Below are positions 3,622 through 29,750 of a stretch of 32,000 nucleotides of DNA, piece by piece. Source of the stretch: Halobacteriales archaeon QS_4_66_20 (GTDB lineage: Archaea > Halobacteriota > Halobacteria > Halobacteriales > Haloarculaceae); contig PXRK01000040.1 in assembly GCA_003021015.1 (NCBI GenBank), positions 60,358 through 92,357 on the forward strand. The letters run 5' to 3'. Numbering within the stretch: position 1 is the first letter of the stretch; every line of letters starts with the position of its first letter. The translations under genes and the position numbers were made by a program. The notes below the pieces were generated by a model. It saw only the letters and a program-made list of their open reading frames with translations, was not told the DNA's origin and did no database searches.

Positions 3622-3892
3622 ATACTGTCGGACGTGACTCTGTGGAATGGTCAGACACGCAAATCGGTGTATACAGTCAGACGTGATTCATACTGGTGGC
3701 TGTAATTCTTTTACTCGCCACTCTCTGCTACCTGAGGATACAGACCCTTTCCGCCTGGATTCTCAATTCGAGTTTTCACGTACTTACAGCCACCAGTATC
3801 AGTGAAGCTATGCCGTCCCAAATCCCGTTGTTCGGGGCATGACATAGCCGATGGACTGTCCTGGCACTGAACGGAGTCACGTCTGGCTGTAT
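3622..3892. mobile_element. Family-B MITE-like composite: solo left end (3622-3660) plus complete copy (3671-3892)
   Basis: The left ends are atactgtcggacgtgactctgtgg (3622) and atacagtcagacgtgattc (3671). The reverse complement of the right end at 3892 is atacagccagacgtgactcc. The first 45 nt match the left arm of the copy at 19514. Confidence 0.65.
3690..3799. mobile_element. Family-C 110-bp TIR element nested in the family-B copy
   Basis: There is a perfect 16-bp inverted repeat: atactggtggctgtaa (3690-3705) and ttacagccaccagtat (3784-3799). The interior is about 46% GC. It shares the ATAC..GTAT termini and size class of family A. Confidence 0.55.
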
Positions 3893-10836: not shown

Positions 10837-11568
10837 ATGTCGAGGCCACGACTCTGCCTGCTGATGGCGTCGTACGACGCCGAGAACACCCGGCGCAATT
10901 TCCGCCGGGAGCTGGACGCGGACCTGGTCGAGTTCCACACGCCGGAGGGCGAACTCCCGCCGCCGGAGACGGCTGGGGCGTTCGAGGCGTTCGACGGCTG
11001 CGTCGTGACGGGGTCGCGGGCGTCGGTCTACTGGGAGGACAAGTGGATCGAGGACGTGGCCGAGTGGGTCGCCGAGGCTATCGCCGACGGCATGCCGTTC
11101 CTGGGTGTCTGCTGGGGCCACCAGCTGCTGGCCCACGTCCTCGGGGGCGACGTCGAGGACATGGGCGAGTACGAGATTGGCTACCGGACCGTGTCACAGG
11201 TCGGCGACTCGCGGCTCTTTGCCGGCCTCGACGACGAGTTCACCGCCTTCGAGACGCACTCGGACTCCGTCGCGGCGCTTCCCGAGGGGGCGGAGTTGAT
11301 CGCCGAAAACGAGTACGGGATCCAGGGGTTCCAAGAGGGGGACGTGTTCGGCGTCCAGTTCCACCCCGAGTACGACCAGCGGACGGCAGCGACGGTCACC
11401 CGGGGCAAGGAGTCGCTCTCACAGGAGCGCATTGACGCGGTTCTGGAGGGGATCACAGACGAGGCCTACGCCGAAGCCTGCGAGACGAAACAGCTGTTCG
11501 ACAACTTCGTCGGGCTGGTGTGCGAGCGGCGGGCAGCGGCGCTCGGCGCCCGTCCAACCCAGGACTGA
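10837..11568 (+). CDS. Class I glutamine amidotransferase (GMP synthase-like GATase1 domain)
   Basis: It has the nucleophile elbow GVCWGHQLL and the catalytic motif FGVQFHPE. The stop TGA (11566-11568) overlaps the first base of a family-B element. Confidence 0.85.
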   Translation: MSRPRLCLLMASYDAENTRRNFRRELDADLVEFHTPEGELPPPETAGAFEAFDGCVVTGSRASVYWEDKWIEDVAEWVAEAIADGMPFLGVCWGHQLLAHVLGGDVEDMGEYEIGYRTVSQVGDSRLFAGLDDEFTAFETHSDSVAALPEGAELIAENEYGIQGFQEGDVFGVQFHPEYDQRTAATVTRGKESLSQERIDAVLEGITDEAYAEACETKQLFDNFVGLVCERRAAALGARPTQD

Positions 11569-11760
11569 TACTGCCGGACGTGATTCCGTTACTACCCGGA
11601 TAGCACTCAGCATCTGATAGTGATTATTGTGAGTCGTTCCGGTATCGACCGCGGTACTGCGTGCGGTCGACCCGGTAAACAGTCACAATAATCACTATGA
11701 GACAACCGAAAACCCCAGTCCGAGCATCACTCGGAGTAACATAGTCACGTCCGGCAGTAT
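11568..11760. mobile_element. Family-B MITE-like element (193 bp) carrying a nested family-A element
   Basis: The left end is atactgccggacgtgattccgttact. The reverse complement of the right end is atactgccggacgtgactatgttact, which matches at 16/16 terminal nt and extends to about 30. Confidence 0.7.
11617..11698. mobile_element. Family-A short variant (82 bp), nested
   Basis: The TIRs are atagtgattattgtgag and (reverse complement) atagtgattattgtgac. The interior is itself a hairpin: ccggtatcgaccgc...gcggtcgacccgg. Confidence 0.7.
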
Positions 11761-11773
11761 GACGACGCCCCGA

Positions 11774-14022: not shown

Positions 14023-15063
14023 TCAGTGCTCGTGGGCGATCCGTTCGCCAGTGTCGAGCCCGTTTCCCAGCGCCGCGTGCAGGCGACCTTCGCCAGCGAC
14101 CCAGTCGCCGAGGAGATACAGGTCCTGCGTGGCCGCGCTGTCGACGACGCCCGAGGAAACCCCAGTTTCGGGCAGCGCGTACCGCCACCGCTGGTGGTCG
14201 ACCCAGGCCGGGTCGGCGAGCCGCTCGTCGCCGATGACGTCTGCTGTGAGCCCCGCAAGTTCGTCGGTCACGAACCCCGGGGAGGCCTCCAGGTGCTGGA
14301 GTGACCAGTCGTGGTTCGCCTGGACGATCAGGACCGACTCGCCGTCGGGGACGTGGCCCGGCTTGCACTCCTCGCGAGCGATCCACCCGATCTCGTGGTC
14401 CTTCCCGGGGTTGACCAGCGCGTAGTACGGGGTCGAGAGCTCGAACTCGTAGCCGAGGATCGCCGTCCAGATCCGTCGGTACTCGACAGCCGAGAGAGCG
14501 TCGACGAGTTCCGATCGGAGCGGGTCGTCCCAGGCAGCCTCCCGGAGCAGGGCCCCGGTCTGTGGTGCCGGCGGATTCGCAAGGAGGACGTCGAACGGTC
14601 CCCACTCCTCGCCGTCGGTGTCGGAGAGCGTCCAGGTGCCTGCCCCCTCGTCGCGCCTAATCCCCTCGACGCGGGTCCGGCGGTGCACGGTCGCGTCCGT
14701 CGCGCCGAACAGCCGTTTCGCGACGCTCGTCAAGCCGTCGCGGTAGGTCCACTTCTCACCCTCGTTGTCGCGTCCTTCCGAGATAGTTTCCTCTTCGTCG
14801 AACACGTAGATCGGCTCCTCGACCGAGACGAGCCCTTCCGCAGAGAGCTGTTCGGTCACCAGGTCCGCGACGCGCTCCTCTTCGTCTTTGAGGTAGTTCG
14901 CACCGTAGTCGTAGGTGATCGGGCCCCGGCGGCGCGTCGCTGCCCGGCCACAGACGCCGCCGGATTTCTCCAGCACGGTGACCGTGGCTTCGGGGCGCGT
15001 TTCGTCCAGCACGTAGGTGGCTGCCGCGGCGGCGCCACCGGCGCCGATGACACCGATGTGCAT
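14023..15063 (-). CDS. NAD(P)/FAD-dependent oxidoreductase (renalase-like)
   Basis: The N-terminal dinucleotide-binding motif is MHIGVIGAGGAAAAATYVL..VTVLEKS. Acidic composition. Confidence 0.8.
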   Translation of the reverse strand: MHIGVIGAGGAAAAATYVLDETRPEATVTVLEKSGGVCGRAATRRRGPITYDYGANYLKDEEERVADLVTEQLSAEGLVSVEEPIYVFDEEETISEGRDNEGEKWTYRDGLTSVAKRLFGATDATVHRRTRVEGIRRDEGAGTWTLSDTDGEEWGPFDVLLANPPAPQTGALLREAAWDDPLRSELVDALSAVEYRRIWTAILGYEFELSTPYYALVNPGKDHEIGWIAREECKPGHVPDGESVLIVQANHDWSLQHLEASPGFVTDELAGLTADVIGDERLADPAWVDHQRWRYALPETGVSSGVVDSAATQDLYLLGDWVAGEGRLHAALGNGLDTGERIAHEH

Positions 15064-15089
15064 GCCCGACGGTTGGATTCCAGGGACTA

Positions 15090-15200
15090 ATAGTGATTGT
15101 TGTGATTATTTTCGGCACCATGTCGCAATAGCGGCGATTTCACGGCCCGAAACTGGCGTCTGAGGAATACCCGGCGGTAAAGAGTCACAACAATCACTAT
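15090..15200. mobile_element. Family-A MITE-like element, full 111-bp copy (forward orientation)
   Basis: It runs atagtgattgttgtga...tcacaacaatcactat. It differs at 7 of 111 positions from the copy at 28360-28470. No ORF. Confidence 0.75.
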
Positions 15201-15215
15201 CAGAGGGTGTAGCTG

Positions 15216-15230
15216 ATACTGTCGGACGTG
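15216..15230. repeat. Solo family-B terminus
   Basis: ctgATACTGTCGGACGTGgg is identical to the first 15 nt of the copy at 3622. No partner end was found. Confidence 0.4.
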
Positions 15231-15321
15231 GGATCTTTATAGCTAGAGGGGGGCCGATCGGCTACGTCCAGATAGCTAGCCACGGATTGTAGGATGCAGA
15301 GTGGAGACAACTACAGTAACA

Positions 15322-15714
15322 ATGGCGACGAAGCTACCCGCCCGTGATCCGGTCCAGCGCAGAGACGGACGTACAGAGGCCCTCGACGAGGAAACCGGTG
15401 CCCAGGCGGCGTCCGGTGAGGAGTTGCTCGAACTGCTCGGCGACGAGTACACGCGTCGCGTCCTCCAGGCAGTCGTCTCGGAACCCAAAAGCGGACGTGA
15501 GGTCGTCGAGGAAGCGTCCGTGTCGAAGGCGACCGCGTACCGCCGACTGGAGACCCTCCAGGAAGCAGGGCTCGTGGAGTCGAGGACCGTGTTCGACCCA
15601 GACGGTCACCACCACGAGCAGTTCCGGGCGATCCTCGACGGCGTGACAGTCGAACTGCGAAACGAGAGCGTCACGACGACGATCCATACCGACGCATCCC
15701 CCGCTGACGATTGA
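15322..15714 (+). CDS. Winged-helix (ArsR-like) transcriptional regulator
   Basis: ELLELLGDEYTRRVLQAVVSEPKSGREVVEEASVSKATAYRRLETLQEAGLVE. ATG at 15322; a GTG at 15301 is also possible. Confidence 0.75.
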   Translation: MATKLPARDPVQRRDGRTEALDEETGAQAASGEELLELLGDEYTRRVLQAVVSEPKSGREVVEEASVSKATAYRRLETLQEAGLVESRTVFDPDGHHHEQFRAILDGVTVELRNESVTTTIHTDASPADD

Positions 15715-15899
15715 CGAGCGGCGCCTTTCTGGCGTCGATGTGGCGGCGCCGGGCAGAACCGCTGGCGCTCCCCCTGCTGGACGTCGCCGTCCGCGACGAT
15801 GGCCCTAGAATCCCGGAGCACGAACAGGCAGTCCTCCTGGAAGGCGAGGAGACGCCGCTGAGCCACGGGAGCGGCCTCGGGCTCTGGCTCGTCTACTGA
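15711..15899 (+). pseudogene. Histidine-kinase remnant (part of the HATPase_c domain only)
   Basis: LDVAVRDDGPRIPEHEQAVLLEGEETPLSHGSGLGLWLVY contains degenerate G1 and intact G2 boxes. There is no HisKA or N box. The track start is a TTG. The C-terminus is cut by the family-A terminus, which supplies the TGA. Confidence 0.7.
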
Positions 15900-15988
15900 T
15901 ACTGATTGTTGTGACTCGTTACCTCGGGTATTCGCCAGACGCCAGTTTCGGGACGTGAAACCGCCGCTACTGCGATGTCGTGCCGAAA
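15899..15988. mobile_element. Family-A element, reverse orientation, one TIR missing
   Basis: atactgattgttgtgactcgttacctcgggtattcgccagacgccagtttcggg... aligns with the reverse complement of 28360-28470. It diverges after ...gtgccgaaa into a local inverted duplication (gtgaaaccgccgcta / tagcggcggttcgtcac). Confidence 0.65.
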
Positions 15989-16141
15989 GTAAATAGCGGC
16001 GGTTCGTCACGAAAACTCTGTATAGCTAGGCTCCACCACTAAGAGTGGGGAGCTACAAGAAGACGTTAGCATGAGCGCACCGGCCCACGACCGAACCGGC
16101 GACGACTCCGTCGTTCGGGCCACTGTCCGCCGAGCCAGCAT

Positions 16142-17224
16142 ATGATCGAGGGGAACGACTGTCGGGACGCCGTCTCGATCGATCGCTACCCGGGGCCAGT
16201 GTGCAGCTACACCTGCCGGAACGGGGAACCGGTGATCGAGCGGGCAAACGAGGCCTTCGAGGGGGCGTTCGGGGCGGTCGCGGCGGGCGACGCGCTCGCG
16301 CCCGTGTTCGAGGAGTACGGGATCGAACCGATCGACGGCCCGGCGCCGCTGTCAGCGATGATGAACGAGGATCGCACCCAGCAGGTCCGCGTCGAATCGC
16401 CACCGGAGACGGGGGCGGGGGCGAACAGGTACCTGGCGCAGGTGATCGCACCGGACGGCGAGCGACCGGGGCACCTGCTGTTGACTGACGCCAGCGCCGG
16501 CGACGGCGACTTCGGCGTCGACAGGGTCGCGAGCGTGATCAGTCACGACCTCCGCAACCCGCTCGACGTCGCCAAGGCGCGACTCAGGGCCGGACGGGAG
16601 CTGGACTCCGGGGAGGATCACCTCGAACACGTCGAACAGGCCCACGACCGCATGGAGCGGATTATCCAGGACGTGCTGACGCTCGCGCGCGGCGAGGAAG
16701 TGATCGAACCGGAGGGGACGGTCGACCTCGGGGCAGTCGCCGAGGACGCCTGGGAGACCGTCGAGACGAACGGCGCGTCGCTGTCGGTCACCGATTCGTT
16801 GCCGTCGACAGTCGCGGACCGCGACCGGGTCAAGCGGCTGTTCGAGAACCTGTTTCGCAACGCCGTGGAACACGGTTCCACGAGCCGGCAGCCTCCAGCT
16901 GACGACGCCGTCGAGCACAGCTCCACGGGCAGTGGGCCCTCTGCCGACAACGACGACGAACACGGCGGCGACGAAATCACGATCACGGTCGGCCGCATCG
17001 AAGACGGGACGACGGGGTTCTACGTCGCGGACGACGGACGGGGCATCCCGGCGGACCGCCGGGAGGCCGTCTTCAGGCCGGGGTACAGTTCCGACGAGCA
17101 CGGCACGGGGCTCGGTCTCGCTATCGTCCGGCGGATCGCGGACGTCCACGGGTGGTCGGTCTCGGTGACGGACGCCGCGGGCGGCGGCGCACGGTTCGAG
17201 TTCGTCGGCGTCGAACCTGCCTGA
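16142..17224 (+). CDS. Sensor histidine kinase (PAS-like N-terminus, HisKA, HATPase_c)
   Basis: The boxes are H box SVISHDLRNPL, N box FENLFRNAVEHG, G1 VADDGRGIP and G2 GTGLGLAIV. The stop TGA overlaps the family-A terminus. Confidence 0.9.
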   Translation: MIEGNDCRDAVSIDRYPGPVCSYTCRNGEPVIERANEAFEGAFGAVAAGDALAPVFEEYGIEPIDGPAPLSAMMNEDRTQQVRVESPPETGAGANRYLAQVIAPDGERPGHLLLTDASAGDGDFGVDRVASVISHDLRNPLDVAKARLRAGRELDSGEDHLEHVEQAHDRMERIIQDVLTLARGEEVIEPEGTVDLGAVAEDAWETVETNGASLSVTDSLPSTVADRDRVKRLFENLFRNAVEHGSTSRQPPADDAVEHSSTGSGPSADNDDEHGGDEITITVGRIEDGTTGFYVADDGRGIPADRREAVFRPGYSSDEHGTGLGLAIVRRIADVHGWSVSVTDAAGGGARFEFVGVEPA

Positions 17225-17334
17225 TAGTGATTGTTGCGACTCTTTCCCGCCGGGGAGTCACAATTCGTGGGCTTCAGCCCGCGAACCAACCGTTCACGCG
17301 TCGTGGTGCCGAAAATAATCGCAACAATCACTAT
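17224..17334. mobile_element. Family-A element, 111 bp, variant interior (reverse orientation)
   Basis: The outer ~33 and ~31 nt match family A, with the TIR atagtgattgttgCga in both arms. The central ~47 nt is unrelated to the other copies. Confidence 0.7.
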
Positions 17335-17397
17335 GAGAGCGAGGGTGAAGGAGAGTCAGACAGATGCTTACGTCCCACACTCGAATCGGGAGCAAAG

Positions 17398-19513: not shown

Positions 19514-19699
19514 ATACACCCGGACGTGACTCTGTTAGATGTCAGGACACGATATCCACGAGTATCGACCCTGACAGTCCCGAGTTGTGTCGAGATGACT
19601 GAGGTGAATCACGTCTCTCCTCGCGGGGGTCGGTTGCGAACCGCTCGGCAGCCCGAGTTGTGTCGAGATGACTGAGGTGAATCACGTCCGGGTGTCTAT
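19514..19699. mobile_element. Family-B MITE-like element (186 bp) with duplicated right arm
   Basis: The left end is atacacccggacgtgactctgtt. The reverse complement of the right end is atagacacccggacgtgattc. An internal 37-bp perfect direct repeat lies at 19579-19615 and 19652-19688. Confidence 0.65.
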
Positions 19700-19743
19700 C
19701 GTGGTTCATCGCCCCGGGCTCCGGCGGGACAGGCTTGAAGGTC

Positions 19744-19805
19744 GGTCGGCAACAGTTAAACATCGGCCCTGCTTTCTGGGAGGTGTGAGCCGGATTCTCA
19801 TCGGG
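19744..19805 (+). repeat. 62-bp direct repeat, copy 1 (duplicate of the PiT promoter and first 7 codons)
   Basis: It matches 20798-20859 at 60 of 62 positions. It contains TTAAAC (19756-19761) and GTG (19785), the latter opening only a 20-codon ORF. Confidence 0.85.
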
Positions 19806-19828
19806 TTGACCAGCGCCTCGACGTCGGC

Positions 19829-20714: not shown

Positions 20715-20797
20715 GTGTTCGGGGTGGTGGCCGGGCGACTTCAACGTTCAGTTCGGCGAGAACTGGTTAGAGGTGGAGGCGTTGGTGCTGCTGGGAC

Positions 20798-20859
20798 GGT
20801 CGGCAACAGTTAAACATCGGCCACGCTTTCTGGGAGGTGTGAGCCAGATTCTCATCGGG
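20798..20859 (+). repeat. 62-bp direct repeat, copy 2 (functional PiT promoter and start)
   Basis: TTAAAC at 20810-20815 is centred about 27 nt upstream of the GTG start at 20839. Confidence 0.85.
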
Positions 20860-22014
20860 CTGGGAGTTCTCGTGGTCGTCTTCGTCGGCTACAACATCGG
20901 CGGGTCGACGACCGGCCCGGCGTTCGGGCCAGCCGTCGGTTCGGCCGTCATCTCGAAGGTGGCGGCCGCGGCGCTGATGGCGGTGTTTTTCTTCGTCGGT
21001 GCGATCACGCTCGGCCGCAGGGTCGTCGAGACGCTCGGCTCGGATCTCGTCACGTCGACCGCCATCTTCACGCTCGAAGCCAACGTCGTCGTGCTCTTTT
21101 TCATCGGCGGCGCGCTGTTCATCGGCAACTACGCCGGCGTCCCGGCGTCGACGTCGATGACGGCCGTCGGTGCGATCGCCGGGCTCGCGCTGTCCGCCGA
21201 CGCGCTCAACTGGACGGAGATGAGCCAGATCATGGCCTGGTGGATCGTCGCCCCGGTGATCGCCTTCTGGGTGTCCGGCGTCATCGGCCGGTACTTCTAC
21301 CCGCGACTCAACCGCCGCGTCGCGCTCGTCCAGAGCGAGGGGCCGTTGATCGAACTCGACCGCTCGGCTGCGGTGCCGCGGCCGGTCCCGGGCCCGAACA
21401 CGACGCGCCGGGAGTTCGCCGGCACCGTGATCGTGGTCGCGATCGGCTGTCTCATGGCGTTCTCCTCAGGCACCTCCAACATCGCCAACGCGATCGCACC
21501 GCTGGTCGGGAGCGACACCATCGGGATGAACGAGGGGATTGTCCTCGGGTCGGCCGCGGTCGCCATCGGCGCGTTCACGATCGGCCGCAAGACGCTCGAC
21601 ACACTCGGGAACGACCTGACTGCACTGCCGCTGACGGCGTCGATCGTCGTTGCGACCGTCAGCGCGACGATCGTGACGCTCCTCTCGTCGATCGGCATCC
21701 CCGCGAGTTTCGTCATCGTCGCCACGATGAGCATCATCGGCCTGGGCTGGGGGCGCGCGACGCGGACGACGACGGTCGAATCGATGCGCGACGGCGAACC
21801 GACCGCGGTCTCGCCGGCCTCCCTCGCCGCCGACGAGGGCGGCGAGGAACTGCCCGATATCGGCGAGGAGAACCCCGAGGAGCTCCCCTCCGCGGGCGAA
21901 CTGTTCAACCCTTCCACCACCGTTCGGGTCGTGCTGATGCAGAACGTCGTCCCCGTGATCGCCACCGTCGCGGCCTATCTGACGTTCACCTTCGTGCCGG
22001 TGTTCGGCCTGTGA
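20839..22014 (+). CDS. PiT-family inorganic phosphate transporter
   Basis: It is a multi-TM protein with the paired PiT signatures GYNIGGSTTGPAFGPAVGS and SGTSNIANAIAPLVGS. The GTG start gives VSQILIGLGVLVV. Confidence 0.85.
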   Translation: MSQILIGLGVLVVVFVGYNIGGSTTGPAFGPAVGSAVISKVAAAALMAVFFFVGAITLGRRVVETLGSDLVTSTAIFTLEANVVVLFFIGGALFIGNYAGVPASTSMTAVGAIAGLALSADALNWTEMSQIMAWWIVAPVIAFWVSGVIGRYFYPRLNRRVALVQSEGPLIELDRSAAVPRPVPGPNTTRREFAGTVIVVAIGCLMAFSSGTSNIANAIAPLVGSDTIGMNEGIVLGSAAVAIGAFTIGRKTLDTLGNDLTALPLTASIVVATVSATIVTLLSSIGIPASFVIVATMSIIGLGWGRATRTTTVESMRDGEPTAVSPASLAADEGGEELPDIGEENPEELPSAGELFNPSTTVRVVLMQNVVPVIATVAAYLTFTFVPVFGL

Positions 22015-22075: not shown

Positions 22076-23512
22076 ATGGTCACGCTCGCCTTCGACGGTC
22101 GAACCGGTGCGAGTGGGGACATGCTGCTGGGTGCGCTGCTGGCCGCCGGCGCCGACCGGTCGGCGCTGGACGTCCTGGAGCGAGAGCTAGGTGTCCGGTA
22201 CGATGTCGCCGAGACGACCCGGTGTGGCATCACCGCGACGCGGGTCGAGGTGGTGCTGGCAGACGAATCCACCAGTCACGATCGTTCCCACGACCAGTCC
22301 GACGGGGGACATTCTCAGGATCGTTCCCACGACCAGTCTGACGGGGGTCATTCTCAGGATCATTCCCACGACCAGTCTGACGGGGGTCGTTCTCAGGATC
22401 ATTCCCACGATCACTCTGACGAAGTACATTCCCACGATCACTCTGACGAAGTACATTCCCACGAAGGAACCGAGGGACACGCTCACGAACACACACACGC
22501 TGAGGGACAGGGGCCGGAACGCAGCTATGGCGAAGTCGTCGACCTCGTGGAGTCGATGGGGCTGACAGGGACGGTGGAGGACACGGCCCTGGCTATCTTC
22601 GAATTACTGGGGGAGGCAGAGGCGAGCGTCCACGGAACGGACCTCGAATCGACGCAGTTCCACGAGGTCGGCGCCGACGACGCGATCGCGGACGTGGTGG
22701 GCGTCGCGCTGTTGCTCGCGGACCTCGACCCCGACAGGGTCGTTACCACGCCGCTCGCGGCCGGGGGCGGAGAGGTGTCGATGAGTCACGGCATCTACCC
22801 GGTCCCGACGCCTGCCGTGGTCGAACTCGCCGAACGCGCCGACTGGTCGCTGCGGGGCGGACCCGTCGAAACGGAGCTCCTGACGCCGACGGGCGCCGCG
22901 GTGCTCGCCCACGTCGCGGCGGGCGTCGAGCGGCTTCCGTCCCTCAATATCGAGCAGTCGGGGTACGGCGCCGGGGCAAAATCCTTCGACCGGCAGCCGA
23001 ACGTCCTCCGGGCGGTCGTCGGCGAAGAGGCGGAGCGACTCAGACAGGAGCCGATCACGGTGCTGGAGACGAACCTCGACGATGCCAGCCCGGAGATCGT
23101 CGGCAGCCTGCAGGAGACGCTCGTCGACGCTGGCGCGCTCGACGTCACCGTGGTGCCGACGACGATGAAGAAGTCACGGCCGGGCCATCTCCTGAAGGTG
23201 ATCGTTCCGCCGGCCGACGCGGCGCAGGTCGCGCGGGCGCTGGCGGCCGAGACGGGAACCCTCGGCGTGCGCGAACACGGCAGCGGGCACCGCTTCGTCG
23301 CCGACCGCTCCGTCGAATCCGTCACCGTCGACGTCGAGGGTCGCTCCTGCGAACTGGACGTCAAGATCGGACGGTTCGGCGGCGATCCGGGCGAGGTGTT
23401 CGACGTCAGCGCGGAGTACGACGACGCGCTCCGGGTCGCCGGCGAGACCGACCTCCCCGTCCGGGAGGTTTGTCGGCGTGCAGAAAACCGTGCTCGCTCT
23501 CGATTTCTCTGA
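22076..23512 (+). CDS. larC: LarC-family nickel insertion protein (DUF111) with expanded His/Asp-rich tract
   Basis: MVTLAFDGRTGASGDMLLGALL, FHEVGADDAIADVVG and LLTPTGAAVLA, plus a C-terminal domain GTLGVRE. The His-rich insert spans residues ~66-145. Confidence 0.85.
   Translation: MVTLAFDGRTGASGDMLLGALLAAGADRSALDVLERELGVRYDVAETTRCGITATRVEVVLADESTSHDRSHDQSDGGHSQDRSHDQSDGGHSQDHSHDQSDGGRSQDHSHDHSDEVHSHDHSDEVHSHEGTEGHAHEHTHAEGQGPERSYGEVVDLVESMGLTGTVEDTALAIFELLGEAEASVHGTDLESTQFHEVGADDAIADVVGVALLLADLDPDRVVTTPLAAGGGEVSMSHGIYPVPTPAVVELAERADWSLRGGPVETELLTPTGAAVLAHVAAGVERLPSLNIEQSGYGAGAKSFDRQPNVLRAVVGEEAERLRQEPITVLETNLDDASPEIVGSLQETLVDAGALDVTVVPTTMKKSRPGHLLKVIVPPADAAQVARALAAETGTLGVREHGSGHRFVADRSVESVTVDVEGRSCELDVKIGRFGGDPGEVFDVSAEYDDALRVAGETDLPVREVCRRAENRARSRFL
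22280..22462 (+). repeat. Coding tandem repeats: 3 x 39 bp followed by 2 x 27 bp
   Basis: The 39-bp units are at 22280-22318, 22319-22357 and 22358-22396 (gatcRttcccacgaccagtcYgacggggg...). The 27-bp units are at 22409-22435 and 22436-22462 (gatcactctgacgaagtacattcccac, identical). Confidence 0.9.
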
Positions 23513-28249: not shown

Positions 28250-28295
28250 ACGACTAGTAGGGCTGATTCGTTCATTATACTGTCGGATGTGACTC

Positions 28296-28358
28296 TGTGG
28301 ATTATGACTGTTTACCGGGTCGACCACACGACTGCGTGCGGTCGATTCCGGAACGACG
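28296..28358. repeat. Family-A short variant, degenerate copy lacking intact TIRs
   Basis: gactgtttaccgggtcgacc...ggtcgattccggaacgac matches the arms of 11617-11698 in inverted orientation (37 of 38 arm positions). Confidence 0.6.
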
Positions 28359-28359
28359 C

Positions 28360-28470
28360 ATAGTGATTGTTGTGAGTATTTTCGGCACCACATCGCAGTA
28401 GCGGCGGTTTCACGGCCCGAAACTGGCGTCTGGCGAATACCCGGCGGTAAAGAGTCACAACAATCACTAT
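28360..28470. mobile_element. Family-A MITE-like element, full 111-bp copy (forward orientation), nested
   Basis: It runs atagtgattgttgtgagt...gagtcacaacaatcactat. A further partial TIR, atagtgattgt, follows at 28472-28482. Confidence 0.75.
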
Positions 28471-28578
28471 CATAGTGATTGTATCACCATGACGTGTCAC
28501 AGAGTCACGTCCGGGTGTATATGAGACCGAAACCAACTTTGATTAGTCCCGGTGTCGAACTCACAGAGAGGGAAGACG

Positions 28579-29718
28579 ATGGATATTGCTGACATAGCTA
28601 CTCCGGAGTACGTGGAGATCGACGCCGACAAGCGCCTCTCGAAAGTTCGATCGATCTTCGAGCGCGAGAACCCCAAGGGGATTGTCGTCACGGAGGACGG
28701 CGAGTATGCGGGCATCATCAACCAGAAACAGCTGCTGCAGTCACATATCCAGGACGATGCGAAAGTCCGCGGGATGATCCGCTCGGCGCCGCGGGTCAAC
28801 CGCCGCGACGACGTCCGCGAGGTCGCTCGCGTGCTGGTCGAGAGCGGAGCGAAGCTGGCTCCCGTCTTCGAGGGCGATAATCTCTGGGGCGTCGTGACCG
28901 AGGACGCCATCTTGGAGGCGGTGCTAGAGAACCTCGACGCACTCGACGTCTCGGAGATCTACACCGACGACATCGTGACCGTCACGACGGACACGAGCAT
29001 CGGGACAGTGATCAACCGCCTGCGCGAGCACGGCGTCTCCCGGCTGCCGGTGCTCGACGACAACGGCCAGCTAACCGGCATGGTCACCACCCACGACATC
29101 GCCGACTTCGCCGTCCGTAACATGGAGCGCCAGCAGAAAGGCGACCGCTCGGGCGACATCGACCGGATTCTCGACATCCGCGTATACGACATCATGAACA
29201 GCCCGGTCGAGACGACCACGCCGACCGAATCGGTCCGGGACGCCGTCACGCGGATGCTCGACAACGACTACGCTGGACTCGTGGTCACACCCGAGGACGA
29301 CGGGACCGTCGTGGGCATCATCACGAAGACGGACGTGATGCGCGCGCTGACGTTCACAGAGGAGGAGCACCTGGACGTCCAGATCACGAACATCACGCTG
29401 CTGGACGCGATCACGCGCGACGAGATCCGCCAGCGCATCGAGGGCGTCTCCGAAAAGTACCAGAAGATGCACGTTCAGCACGCCCACGTCCGCTTTCACA
29501 AGCACAAGGAACGGCTGCGGGGCACGCCACTGATCCAGTGTCAGATCCGGCTGCGGACGAACCGCGGGCAGGTCGCCGGCTCCGGCGAGGGGTACGGCGC
29601 CGACGCCGCGTTCGGGGTGGCGATCGACAAACTCGAACGGCGCGTGCTCGAACTCAAGGGCGTCCAGGCCGACGAAGAGTACCGCGGCCAGCTGCTCCGG
29701 AAGCTGGGCGAACTCTGA
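28579..29718 (+). CDS. Four-CBS-domain protein fused to an HPF/RaiA-like (S30AE) C-terminal domain
   Basis: Four CBS-like repeats occupy residues ~12-265 of the track ORF. The C-terminal part is LDVQITNI..DEIRQRIEGVSEKY..AHVRFHKHKE..QCQIRLRTNRGQVAGSGEGYGADAAFGVAIDKLERRVLELKG. It aligns by eye, element by element, with E. coli HPF as I remember it (QLNITG..., ...AAIDGLIDKLARQLTKHK). Start at MDIADIATPEY. Confidence 0.8.
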   Translation: MDIADIATPEYVEIDADKRLSKVRSIFERENPKGIVVTEDGEYAGIINQKQLLQSHIQDDAKVRGMIRSAPRVNRRDDVREVARVLVESGAKLAPVFEGDNLWGVVTEDAILEAVLENLDALDVSEIYTDDIVTVTTDTSIGTVINRLREHGVSRLPVLDDNGQLTGMVTTHDIADFAVRNMERQQKGDRSGDIDRILDIRVYDIMNSPVETTTPTESVRDAVTRMLDNDYAGLVVTPEDDGTVVGIITKTDVMRALTFTEEEHLDVQITNITLLDAITRDEIRQRIEGVSEKYQKMHVQHAHVRFHKHKERLRGTPLIQCQIRLRTNRGQVAGSGEGYGADAAFGVAIDKLERRVLELKGVQADEEYRGQLLRKLGEL

Positions 29719-29734
29719 TACTGTCAGACGCGAC
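29718..29734. repeat. Solo family-B-like terminus overlapping the stop codon
   Basis: ctctgATACTGTCAGACGCGAC matches 13 of the first 15 nt of the 3622 terminus. It lies in the 32-bp convergent spacer. Confidence 0.35.
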
Positions 29735-29750
29735 GACCGAGAGGCGCGGA

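Follow-up and report, generated by a model that had tools for sequence, protein, structure and literature searches.

We examined a 32,000-nucleotide stretch of contig PXRK01000040.1 from the Halobacteriales archaeon QS_4_66_20 (here called the window) and a family of short inverted-repeat elements that it contains, which we call family A. The window was GC rich (~62-74% over most of its length) and had no tRNAs. A search for the 16-nt terminus ATAGTGATTGTTGTGA with at most 2 mismatches returned 9 matches in the window, against 0.00 expected from shuffled sequences. All six of the full or partial copies that the original prediction had placed in the window were present at the positions given:

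15088-15202, plus strand: long copy; element proper 15091-15199 (109 bp, TAGTG...CACTA), with the triplets TAA (15088-15090) and TCA (15200-15202).
28358-28472, plus strand: long copy; element proper 28361-28469, with the triplets GCA and TCA; it sits in a degenerate short copy, whose right terminus it entered.
17222-17336, minus strand: long copy of a different subfamily; element proper 17225-17333, with TGA duplicated on both sides.
15897-15992, minus strand: truncated long copy; TGA at 15897-15899, then 15900-15992, with the far terminus (~17 nt) gone.
11615-11700, plus strand: short copy; element proper 11618-11697 (80 bp) between duplicated TGA triplets, nested in an element of a second family, B (11569-11759).
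28296-28357, minus strand: degenerate short copy, interrupted by the copy at 28361-28469 and without an intact terminus.

Ten genes flanking copies in the window were checked against Pfam; none was a transposase, and all were ordinary chromosomal genes. The copy at 15090 sat between the divergent starts of an amine-oxidase-like gene (14023-15063, minus strand) and a helix-turn-helix regulator gene (15301-15714, plus strand). The left TGA (17222-17224) of the copy at 17224 was the stop codon of a histidine-kinase gene (16142-17224), which was backed by Pfam HisKA and HATPase_c matches and by independent gene calls. The truncated copy at 15899-15992 lay within the rearranged remnant of two histidine-kinase genes.

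The long copies at 15090-15200 and 28360-28470 were 94% identical, in agreement with the predicted 104 of 111 positions. The copy at 17224-17334 does have the same length, but more than its core sets it apart: it is the same element in the opposite orientation, 76% identical to the 15090 copy after reverse complementing. Similarly, the copy at 15899 had lost one end as predicted, but it extends to 15992 and runs in reverse; its core was 96% identical to the reverse-complemented 28360 copy. The degenerate short form at 28296-28358 was recognized correctly: it matched the 11617 copy at 93% over 30 nt, was interrupted by the 28360 copy, and had a further terminus fragment, TAGTGATTGT, at 28473-28482. 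The lengths of 111 and 82 bp given originally can be measured as such, but the first A and the last T of the 111-mer belong to the target duplication because TNA triplets match on both sides, and the elements proper are 109 and 80 bp long. Family A elements end in perfect 16-nt inverted termini, TAGTGATTGTTGTGA(T/C), that extend imperfectly to ~27 nt, and the left and right subterminal regions showed conserved differences. There was no coding capacity in any copy, and 109 or 80 bp leaves no space for a transposase gene.

To describe the family beyond the window, we scanned 185,579 species-representative genomes with a two-terminus pattern (gap of 50 to 80, with positions 10 and 14 free). Among the matches listed, at least 82 stretches occurred in seven haloarchaeal genomes or metagenome-assembled genomes (MAGs), so that copies beyond the window do exist, as anticipated. 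The carriers were the Halobacteriales MAGs SW_10_66_29, SW_7_65_23, QS_1_68_17, and QH_10_67_22, a Halovenus MAG, a Halococcaceae MAG, and Halorubrum sp. 48-1-W. Plasmids also carried copies, one in Halovenus salina and, in a diverged form, one in Halobacterium sp. BOL4-2. A local search allowing at most 2 mismatches per arm yielded 108 non-redundant copies, which form the copy set used below. Family A is therefore short (109/80 bp), noncoding, and bounded by terminal inverted repeats (16/16 arms in 90 of the 108 copies), the build of a MITE (miniature inverted-repeat transposable element), as the original prediction had it.

Counting the outermost A and T, 73 of the 108 copies were 111 nt long, 3 were 110 nt, 31 were 82 nt, and 1 was 81 nt. 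The long form fell into at least 8 subfamilies with cores only ~50-75% identical and length unchanged, and the short form was more homogeneous (mean pairwise identity, 93%). These numbers indicate that only certain lengths were propagated: 109 bp across different cores, 107-109 bp in the sister families described below, and 77-80 bp in the short class. The geometry of bringing two ends together on such short DNA would probably account for this constraint; alternatively, a fold-back intermediate may impose it.

The flanks of the copies defined the target. Among the long copies (n = 76), T occupied position -2 in 75/76 and A position +2 in 75/76, the bases at -1 and +1 were the same, and the preference extended outward to C at -3 (55/76) and G at +3 (50/76). 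The TNA triplet was identical on both sides in 99 of the 108 copies (TGA, 48; TCA, 47; TAA, 3; TTA, 1), and the target as a whole was palindromic and close to SWC-TSA-GWS. Such a duplication of fixed length is expected of a MITE, and a 3-bp TNA specifically of the Tourist-like MITEs of the insertion sequence (IS) family IS5 (IS1031/ISL2) or of PIF/Harbinger.

Comparison with a close relative provided an empty site. The window was syntenic, at 95-98% identity, with contig PXSF01000100.1 of the MAG SW_10_66_29 (loci L004 and L076 in our set of related loci). The copy at 17224 was absent from the orthologous site near position 6250 of L076, which reads GCTTGAGGG. The empty site was thus ...CCTGCTTGAGGGCG... 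(C-TGA-G), and the filled site ...CCTGCCTGA[TAGTG...CACTA]TGAGAGCG... (C-TGA-[element]-TGA-G). Nested copies gave the same picture. The short copy at 11618-11697 is flanked as ...GCATCTGA on its left and TGAGACAACC on its right, and an uninterrupted paralogue of its host repeat (L028) reads GCATCTGAGACAACC, with a single TGA. Likewise, in L074, L009, and L014, family A copies host other copies or sit in them, with TCA or TGA duplications, and uninterrupted paralogues of hosts had a single TNA where A, B, or C copies nest elsewhere. The presence/absence polymorphism sought as a check on the original prediction is therefore found both in the relative and in the nested copies, and family A is dispersed (at least 82 stretches), polymorphic, and nested, as MITEs are.

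The same sites bear on the type of duplication. The original prediction had favored a TA duplication of the IS630/mariner type, that is, a Stowaway-like MITE moved by an IS630/Tc1-mariner transposase. The A...T flanks beside termini that themselves contain TA could be read in this way, and a sub-group of the sister family B (the TACAGCCAGACGTGA type, see below) would be compatible with a 2-bp duplication. However, a TA duplication is excluded at the 17224 site because it would need CTGATATGAG (TATGA) in the empty site, which has CTTGAG. Moreover, the middle base of the triplet matched on both sides in 99/108 copies, with both G and C found within one subfamily. We consider a Stowaway-like origin of family A very improbable. 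Family A is a recently mobile element, and its target duplication is 3-bp TNA and not TA.

Family A was not alone in the window. Two related families were present, family B with the termini TACTGYCGGACGTGA (107-109 bp) and family C with the termini TACTGGTGGCTGTAA (108 bp; MAGs of Halovenus and Halococcaceae carry related 77-78-bp forms). Both made TNA duplications, inserted into family A, and were inserted into by it. Together with family A, they brought the number of elements or fragments in the window to at least 13. The local density, which the original prediction had called very high for family A, was thus higher than claimed, with at least seven further elements or fragments of these two families:

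3623-3669: family B, fragment.
3672-3891: family B.
3691-3798: family C.
11569-11759: family B, host of the short family A copy, with its own TGA duplication (11566-11568 and 11760-11762).
15217-15232: family B, fragment.
19515-19696: family B.
28278-28519: family B, with the termini TACTGTCGGATGTGA ... TCACGTCCGGGTGTA, host of the family A copy at 28361-28469 and of the degenerate short family A copy.
29719 onward: family B, fragment (29719-29735).

Family B copies also abutted stop codons, those of a GATase gene (10864-11568; TGA 11566-11568) and of a CBS gene (29716-29718). At 11723, the window lacks a family C copy that L004 carries at 3784-3891, which makes a second case of presence/absence polymorphism.

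One sub-group of family B, with the termini TACAGCCAGACGTGA or TACACCCGGACGTGA, had TA on both sides instead of TNA. It comprised the window copies at 3672-3891, 19515-19696, and 28278-28519 and the copies at L019 3333-3441, L031 6393-6501, L074 4641-4748, and L077 1589-1697. These flanks may mark a 2-bp duplication or else an insertion into TATA, in either case by an enzyme that is distinct but related. Within family B, the 19515-19696 copy further contained an internal tandem duplication of ~73 bp (19578-19690), in which the block CCCGAGTTGTGTCGAGATGACTGAGGTGAATCACGTC occurred twice.

We then related the copies to genes. Genes were called with a codon model trained on acidic open reading frames (ORFs), as GC3-based and naive codon callers mis-called antisense ORFs. 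Pfam matches for the ten window genes and independent gene calls on a contig from the European Nucleotide Archive with the same region agreed with our calls. None of the 108 copies lay inside a called gene. In 49 of the 108 (45%), the duplicated TNA was the stop codon of a neighboring gene, whereas the share expected among sites that are nongenic or stop codons was 9% for TNA, 14% for CTNAG, and 16% for CTSAG (binomial P values, 4e-23, 4e-15, and 7e-13, respectively). Orientation at stop codons was unbiased, with either end abutting the gene (19 versus 18). About half of the element ends faced gene starts, and their distances to the start codons varied widely (6 to 1788 nt) and showed no peak. 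Such distances do not support a fixed promoter-donor geometry, and a role as a mobile promoter, with CGAAAATAAT at the left end as a candidate outward site resembling a transcription factor B recognition element (BRE) and TATA box, was set aside.

An additional family A copy with a divergent terminus (L001 2696-2804) showed what happens inside a gene. It interrupts an ORF that is alpha/beta-hydrolase-like by its translation only. The frame is shifted because the insertion amounts to 112 bp including the duplication; the ORF now terminates within the element, and what used to be its C-terminal part lies farther downstream in a different frame. The simplest reading is that family A inserts at TNA sites generally and that purifying selection removes the damaging copies, while hits on TGA or TAA stop codons regenerate the stop and are harmless. 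This would explain why nearly half of the copies are found on stop codons. Landing on a stop codon and restoring it by its own duplication is a way for a transposon to persist in a gene-dense genome.

The two arms of family A were kept alike to an unusual degree. The concerted substitutions first noted at position 10 of the 11617 copy and at position 14 of the 17224 copy were verified, and the wider set extended them. Across 71 distinct long copies, pair 4/108 was GC in 65 and CG in 6; pair 10/102 was GC in 64 and AU in 7; and pair 14/98 was UA in 40, CG in 26, and discordant CA in 5. The observed covariation score was reached by 0 of 500 shuffles. Haplotypes at positions 4, 10, and 14 were symmetric in 99/108 copies (GGT, 36; GAT, 27; GGC, 21; GAC, 9; CGT, 6), and all four combinations of positions 10 and 14 occurred. 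The TACTG variant was found on two different long-core backgrounds and in the short form, and the L001 copy carried two further substitutions on both arms (TAGTGATTAGTGCGA / TCGCACTAATCACTA). At positions 4, 10, and 14, ascertainment does not account for the symmetry: the search pattern left 10 and 14 free, and the variants at position 4 came as by-catch. It follows that the arms are homogenized; hairpin or cruciform mismatch correction, template switching, and selection for one protein to bind both ends are possible causes. Template switching at quasi-palindromes is established in bacteria.

Pairing of the arms was originally put forward as something selected, and a structured noncoding RNA or regulatory hairpin, such as a terminator or a stabilizer of mRNA 3' ends, would explain compensatory changes by RNA pairing. 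Single strands did fold strongly (z from -4.4 to -9.1) because of the termini, most clearly in the copy at 11617-11698, a near-perfect hairpin with arms of ~40 nt (DNA fold, -29.2 kcal/mol; z = -9.1). The two-sided changes at three arm pairs also agree with such a role, as does the start of the element at a stop codon in 45% of the copies, a possible site for a 3' hairpin, at which neutrality of orientation would suit a symmetric structure. However, the target duplications, the empty sites, and the nesting show that the copies are made by transposition, about half of the element ends face gene starts at scattered distances, and the copies take either orientation beside genes. The concerted change held up only for the termini. 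Beyond them, the subterminal region (17-28) was conserved yet asymmetric, with pairs 19/93, 23/89, 25/87, and 28/84 never forming; these mismatches are conserved and not repaired. RNAalifold on the 71 distinct copies gave a terminal stem and weak interior pairs only, with no conserved interior structure across subfamilies, and conserved internal RNA structure was therefore discarded as a candidate. So was membership in a known RNA family, which had been named as a possible refutation of a mobile element: Rfam 15 gave 0 matches, both for the whole window (gathering thresholds) and for 15050-15250 (E values of ≤1). A dedicated RNA function is thus not supported and seems to us improbable as an explanation of family A, while a secondary, exapted role is conceivable. 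We conclude that the left and right subterminal differences are kept because both are needed for mobility.

The relative with the empty site also revealed rearrangements at family A copies. The ortholog of the 15090 copy (L076 737-847) was 99% identical and had TAA on both sides. In the window, its right flank is rearranged, differs from the ortholog, and abuts the family B fragment at 15217-15232. Beside the copies at 15090 and 15899, the window keeps only a fused remnant (15712-15898) of two histidine-kinase genes, both of them intact in L076 (1725-4978). This deletion is bounded by family A copies, one of them truncated in each genome. Family A elements mark a rearrangement-prone region, and their link to the loss and fusion of two histidine-kinase genes shapes variation at the strain level.

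Several further features of these loci were noted. The first 1000 nucleotides of the window had a GC content of 48%, compared with ~62-74% elsewhere, and a minus-strand ORF; they are probably part of a foreign or island segment. A 1.5-kb indel was present only in the related MAG (L004 5585-7059, versus window 13412/13413) and contained a KaiC/RecA-like ATPase, judged by its translation, and a small acidic protein, with no transposase and no element termini. A tandem repeat with a 39-bp period and about five copies (22276-22470; 85-94% identity) lay inside the ORF at 22076-23512. A 69-nt direct repeat (19740-19808 and 20794-20862; 93% identical, 1054 bp apart) was unrelated to families A, B, and C. 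Finally, at ~6900-7050 of L036, a lone family A terminus adjoins an apparent haloarchaeal repeat of the clustered regularly interspaced short palindromic repeat (CRISPR) type (GTTTCAGAC...ATTGAA), so that an element copy abuts a CRISPR array.

Taken together, family A of the Halobacteria is very probably a nonautonomous DNA transposon and belongs to the MITE or "small mobile repeat" (SMR) type; its forms of 109 and 80 bp would be mobilized in trans. Several points weigh against this assignment. The autonomous IS with the same terminal inverted repeats for which the original prediction suggested a search did not appear: none with family A termini was present in 640 kb of related loci. In the plasmid database PLSDB (72,556 records, queried with the full element and with the A, B, and C termini at E values of ≤10), there were only copies, in Halovenus and Halobacterium plasmids. 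Viral contigs gave only chance matches. The length of the duplication and its sequence are the sole basis for the transposase family, and the stop-codon statistics come from a home-made gene caller checked in the window region only. The search pattern itself fixed most terminus positions, which leaves positions 10 and 14 and the by-catch copies as the only places where symmetry is seen without bias.

Other routes to a partner led to the same result within the loci. Single termini across all loci were truncated or nested copies with no autonomous partner, self-BLAST of the 640 kb returned orthologous synteny only, and every pair of termini spaced 400-5000 bp with matching TNA turned out to combine separate copies. 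An IS5-like transposase beside a Halobacterium copy (L083 4181-4889) was rejected as the partner, its ends being unrelated. Judged by its ORF translations, the sequence beyond a truncated copy in L072 resembles a toxin-antitoxin pair and not a transposase.

As for the enzyme, the IS1031/ISL2 groups of the IS5 family and PIF/Harbinger, with their Tourist-like MITEs, have a 3-bp TNA duplication as their hallmark. One report (PMC4482050) likewise gives the TNA duplication as typical of these IS5 and PIF-Harbinger groups. Our best guess is therefore a DDE transposase like those of the IS5 family (IS1031/ISL2) or of PIF-Harbinger, though we hold this guess only tentatively.

A quite different enzyme has to be weighed against it. 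In a REPIN-like process, an HUH enzyme (RAYT, IS200/IS605 type), or another chromosomal enzyme that has not been recognized as a transposase, would move the element in single-stranded form, with the hairpin itself as the substrate. HUH transposition of the IS200/IS605 type makes no target duplication, and the flanking triplet of family A, variable from site to site, is yet duplicated; nor was a candidate HUH gene identified. On the other side stand the arm symmetry on several backgrounds (five symmetric haplotypes and the extra copy with its two concerted substitutions) and the lack of a partner IS in the searched loci and plasmids. The SMRs of Haloquadratum, of the same sizes, also lack a partner and target IS605-type palindromes (PMC3119063). 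On balance, we regard movement as a single-stranded hairpin as unlikely.

We thus return to a nonautonomous DNA transposon and suggest how it may move. A transposase supplied in trans would attach to both termini and open the target, a palindromic site close to SWC-TSA-GWS, by a cut staggered by 3 nt. Then the element would be joined to the target and the gaps filled, giving the TNA duplication. Insertions into genes do occur and would be removed by selection, and those at TGA or TAA stops would regenerate the stop and survive. The arms would likely be kept identical by mismatch correction of hairpins or cruciforms together with template switching, or by selection for binding by a single transposase.

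The definition of a widespread haloarchaeal miniature-transposon family with exact ends, target, and duplication allows clean annotation of many sequences in Halobacteria genomes and MAGs that would otherwise be "intergenic repeats." Moreover, constraints on the enzyme come from lengths that stay fixed while cores diverge, from the symmetric evolution of the arms, and from the failure to find a partner IS in the searched loci and plasmids. Among known systems, family A resembles the Tourist-like MITEs and IS5 (IS1031, ISL2) or PIF/Harbinger derivatives in its 3-bp TNA duplication and as a small, noncoding element with terminal inverted repeats near genes. However, its termini, which begin with TA(G/C)TG, are unlike the ends of the IS5 family, which are G rich, and no IS5-type element with family A termini was found in the searched loci or plasmids. 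Correia/NEMIS, RUP, and ERIC elements are ~100-150 bp long, with long hairpin-forming inverted termini, intergenic, and present in high copy number; Correia and RUP make a TA duplication and are linked to IS630-type enzymes. Family A is like all of these in size, hairpin termini, intergenic location, and copy number, but it differs in its TNA duplication, its archaeal hosts, and the lack of any common sequence. It also differs from REP/REPIN-RAYT and from the IS200/IS605-derived palindrome-associated transposable elements (PATEs), which have subterminal palindromes and duplicate no target on insertion, by its terminal inverted repeats and its TNA duplication.

The closest parallel in the literature searched is found in the SMRs of Haloquadratum walsbyi, where HqIRS42, HqIRS43, and HqIRS55 are ~103-122 bp long and HqIRS41 is 79-80 bp (Dyall-Smith et al. 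2011, PMC3119063). Family A shares with them a haloarchaeal host, two size classes (~110 bp and ~80 bp), conspicuous inverted termini without a match in any known transposon, a division into several families whose cores are unrelated, copy numbers in the tens for each genome, strain-specific insertions, and frequent insertion into other mobile elements. In size and termini, family A (109/80 bp) and families B and C (107-109 bp, with short forms of 77-78 bp) all fall in with the SMRs. One listed SMR insertion is described as "in_gene, sequence not affected" (PMC3119063), which resembles what an insertion at a stop codon would look like. Family A is unlike the SMRs in its clear 3-bp TNA duplication and CTNAG-like target, and it is likened to them by description, not by sequence; the SMRs are reported to have no target duplication and to prefer the palindromes of PATEs and IS605-type elements (PMC3119063). 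Beside termini that start with TA, a 3-bp duplication looks like a continuation of the inverted repeat, and it may have gone unnoticed in 2011.

No TNA-flanked element of this size with terminal inverted repeats was present on plasmids PL47 and PL100 of Haloquadratum. A 111-bp palindromic candidate on plasmid PL100 of H. walsbyi C23 (L201 30510-30620) had the same flanks in two metagenome contigs (L204 and L205) and was set aside as conserved intergenic sequence that is not mobile. In the literature searched, no paper other than PMC3119063 made mention of SMRs or of the family A terminus sequence. A more speculative proposal, which we think doubtful but worth stating, would group families A, B, and C with the Haloquadratum SMRs in a single haloarchaeal class of fold-back transposons, quantized in length (~80 and ~109 bp) and without an autonomous counterpart. 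They would be moved by an enzyme so far not recognized as their transposase, possibly encoded by a chromosomal gene present in single copy, whose cut at CTNAG-like sites would be staggered by 3 nt. Their arms would be kept identical because the elements go through a hairpin or cruciform stage, or often take up such a form, and mismatches are corrected there. If true, this would resolve the mobilization of the SMRs, called enigmatic when they were reported in 2011 (PMC3119063), and would explain both the strict length and the symmetry of the arms.

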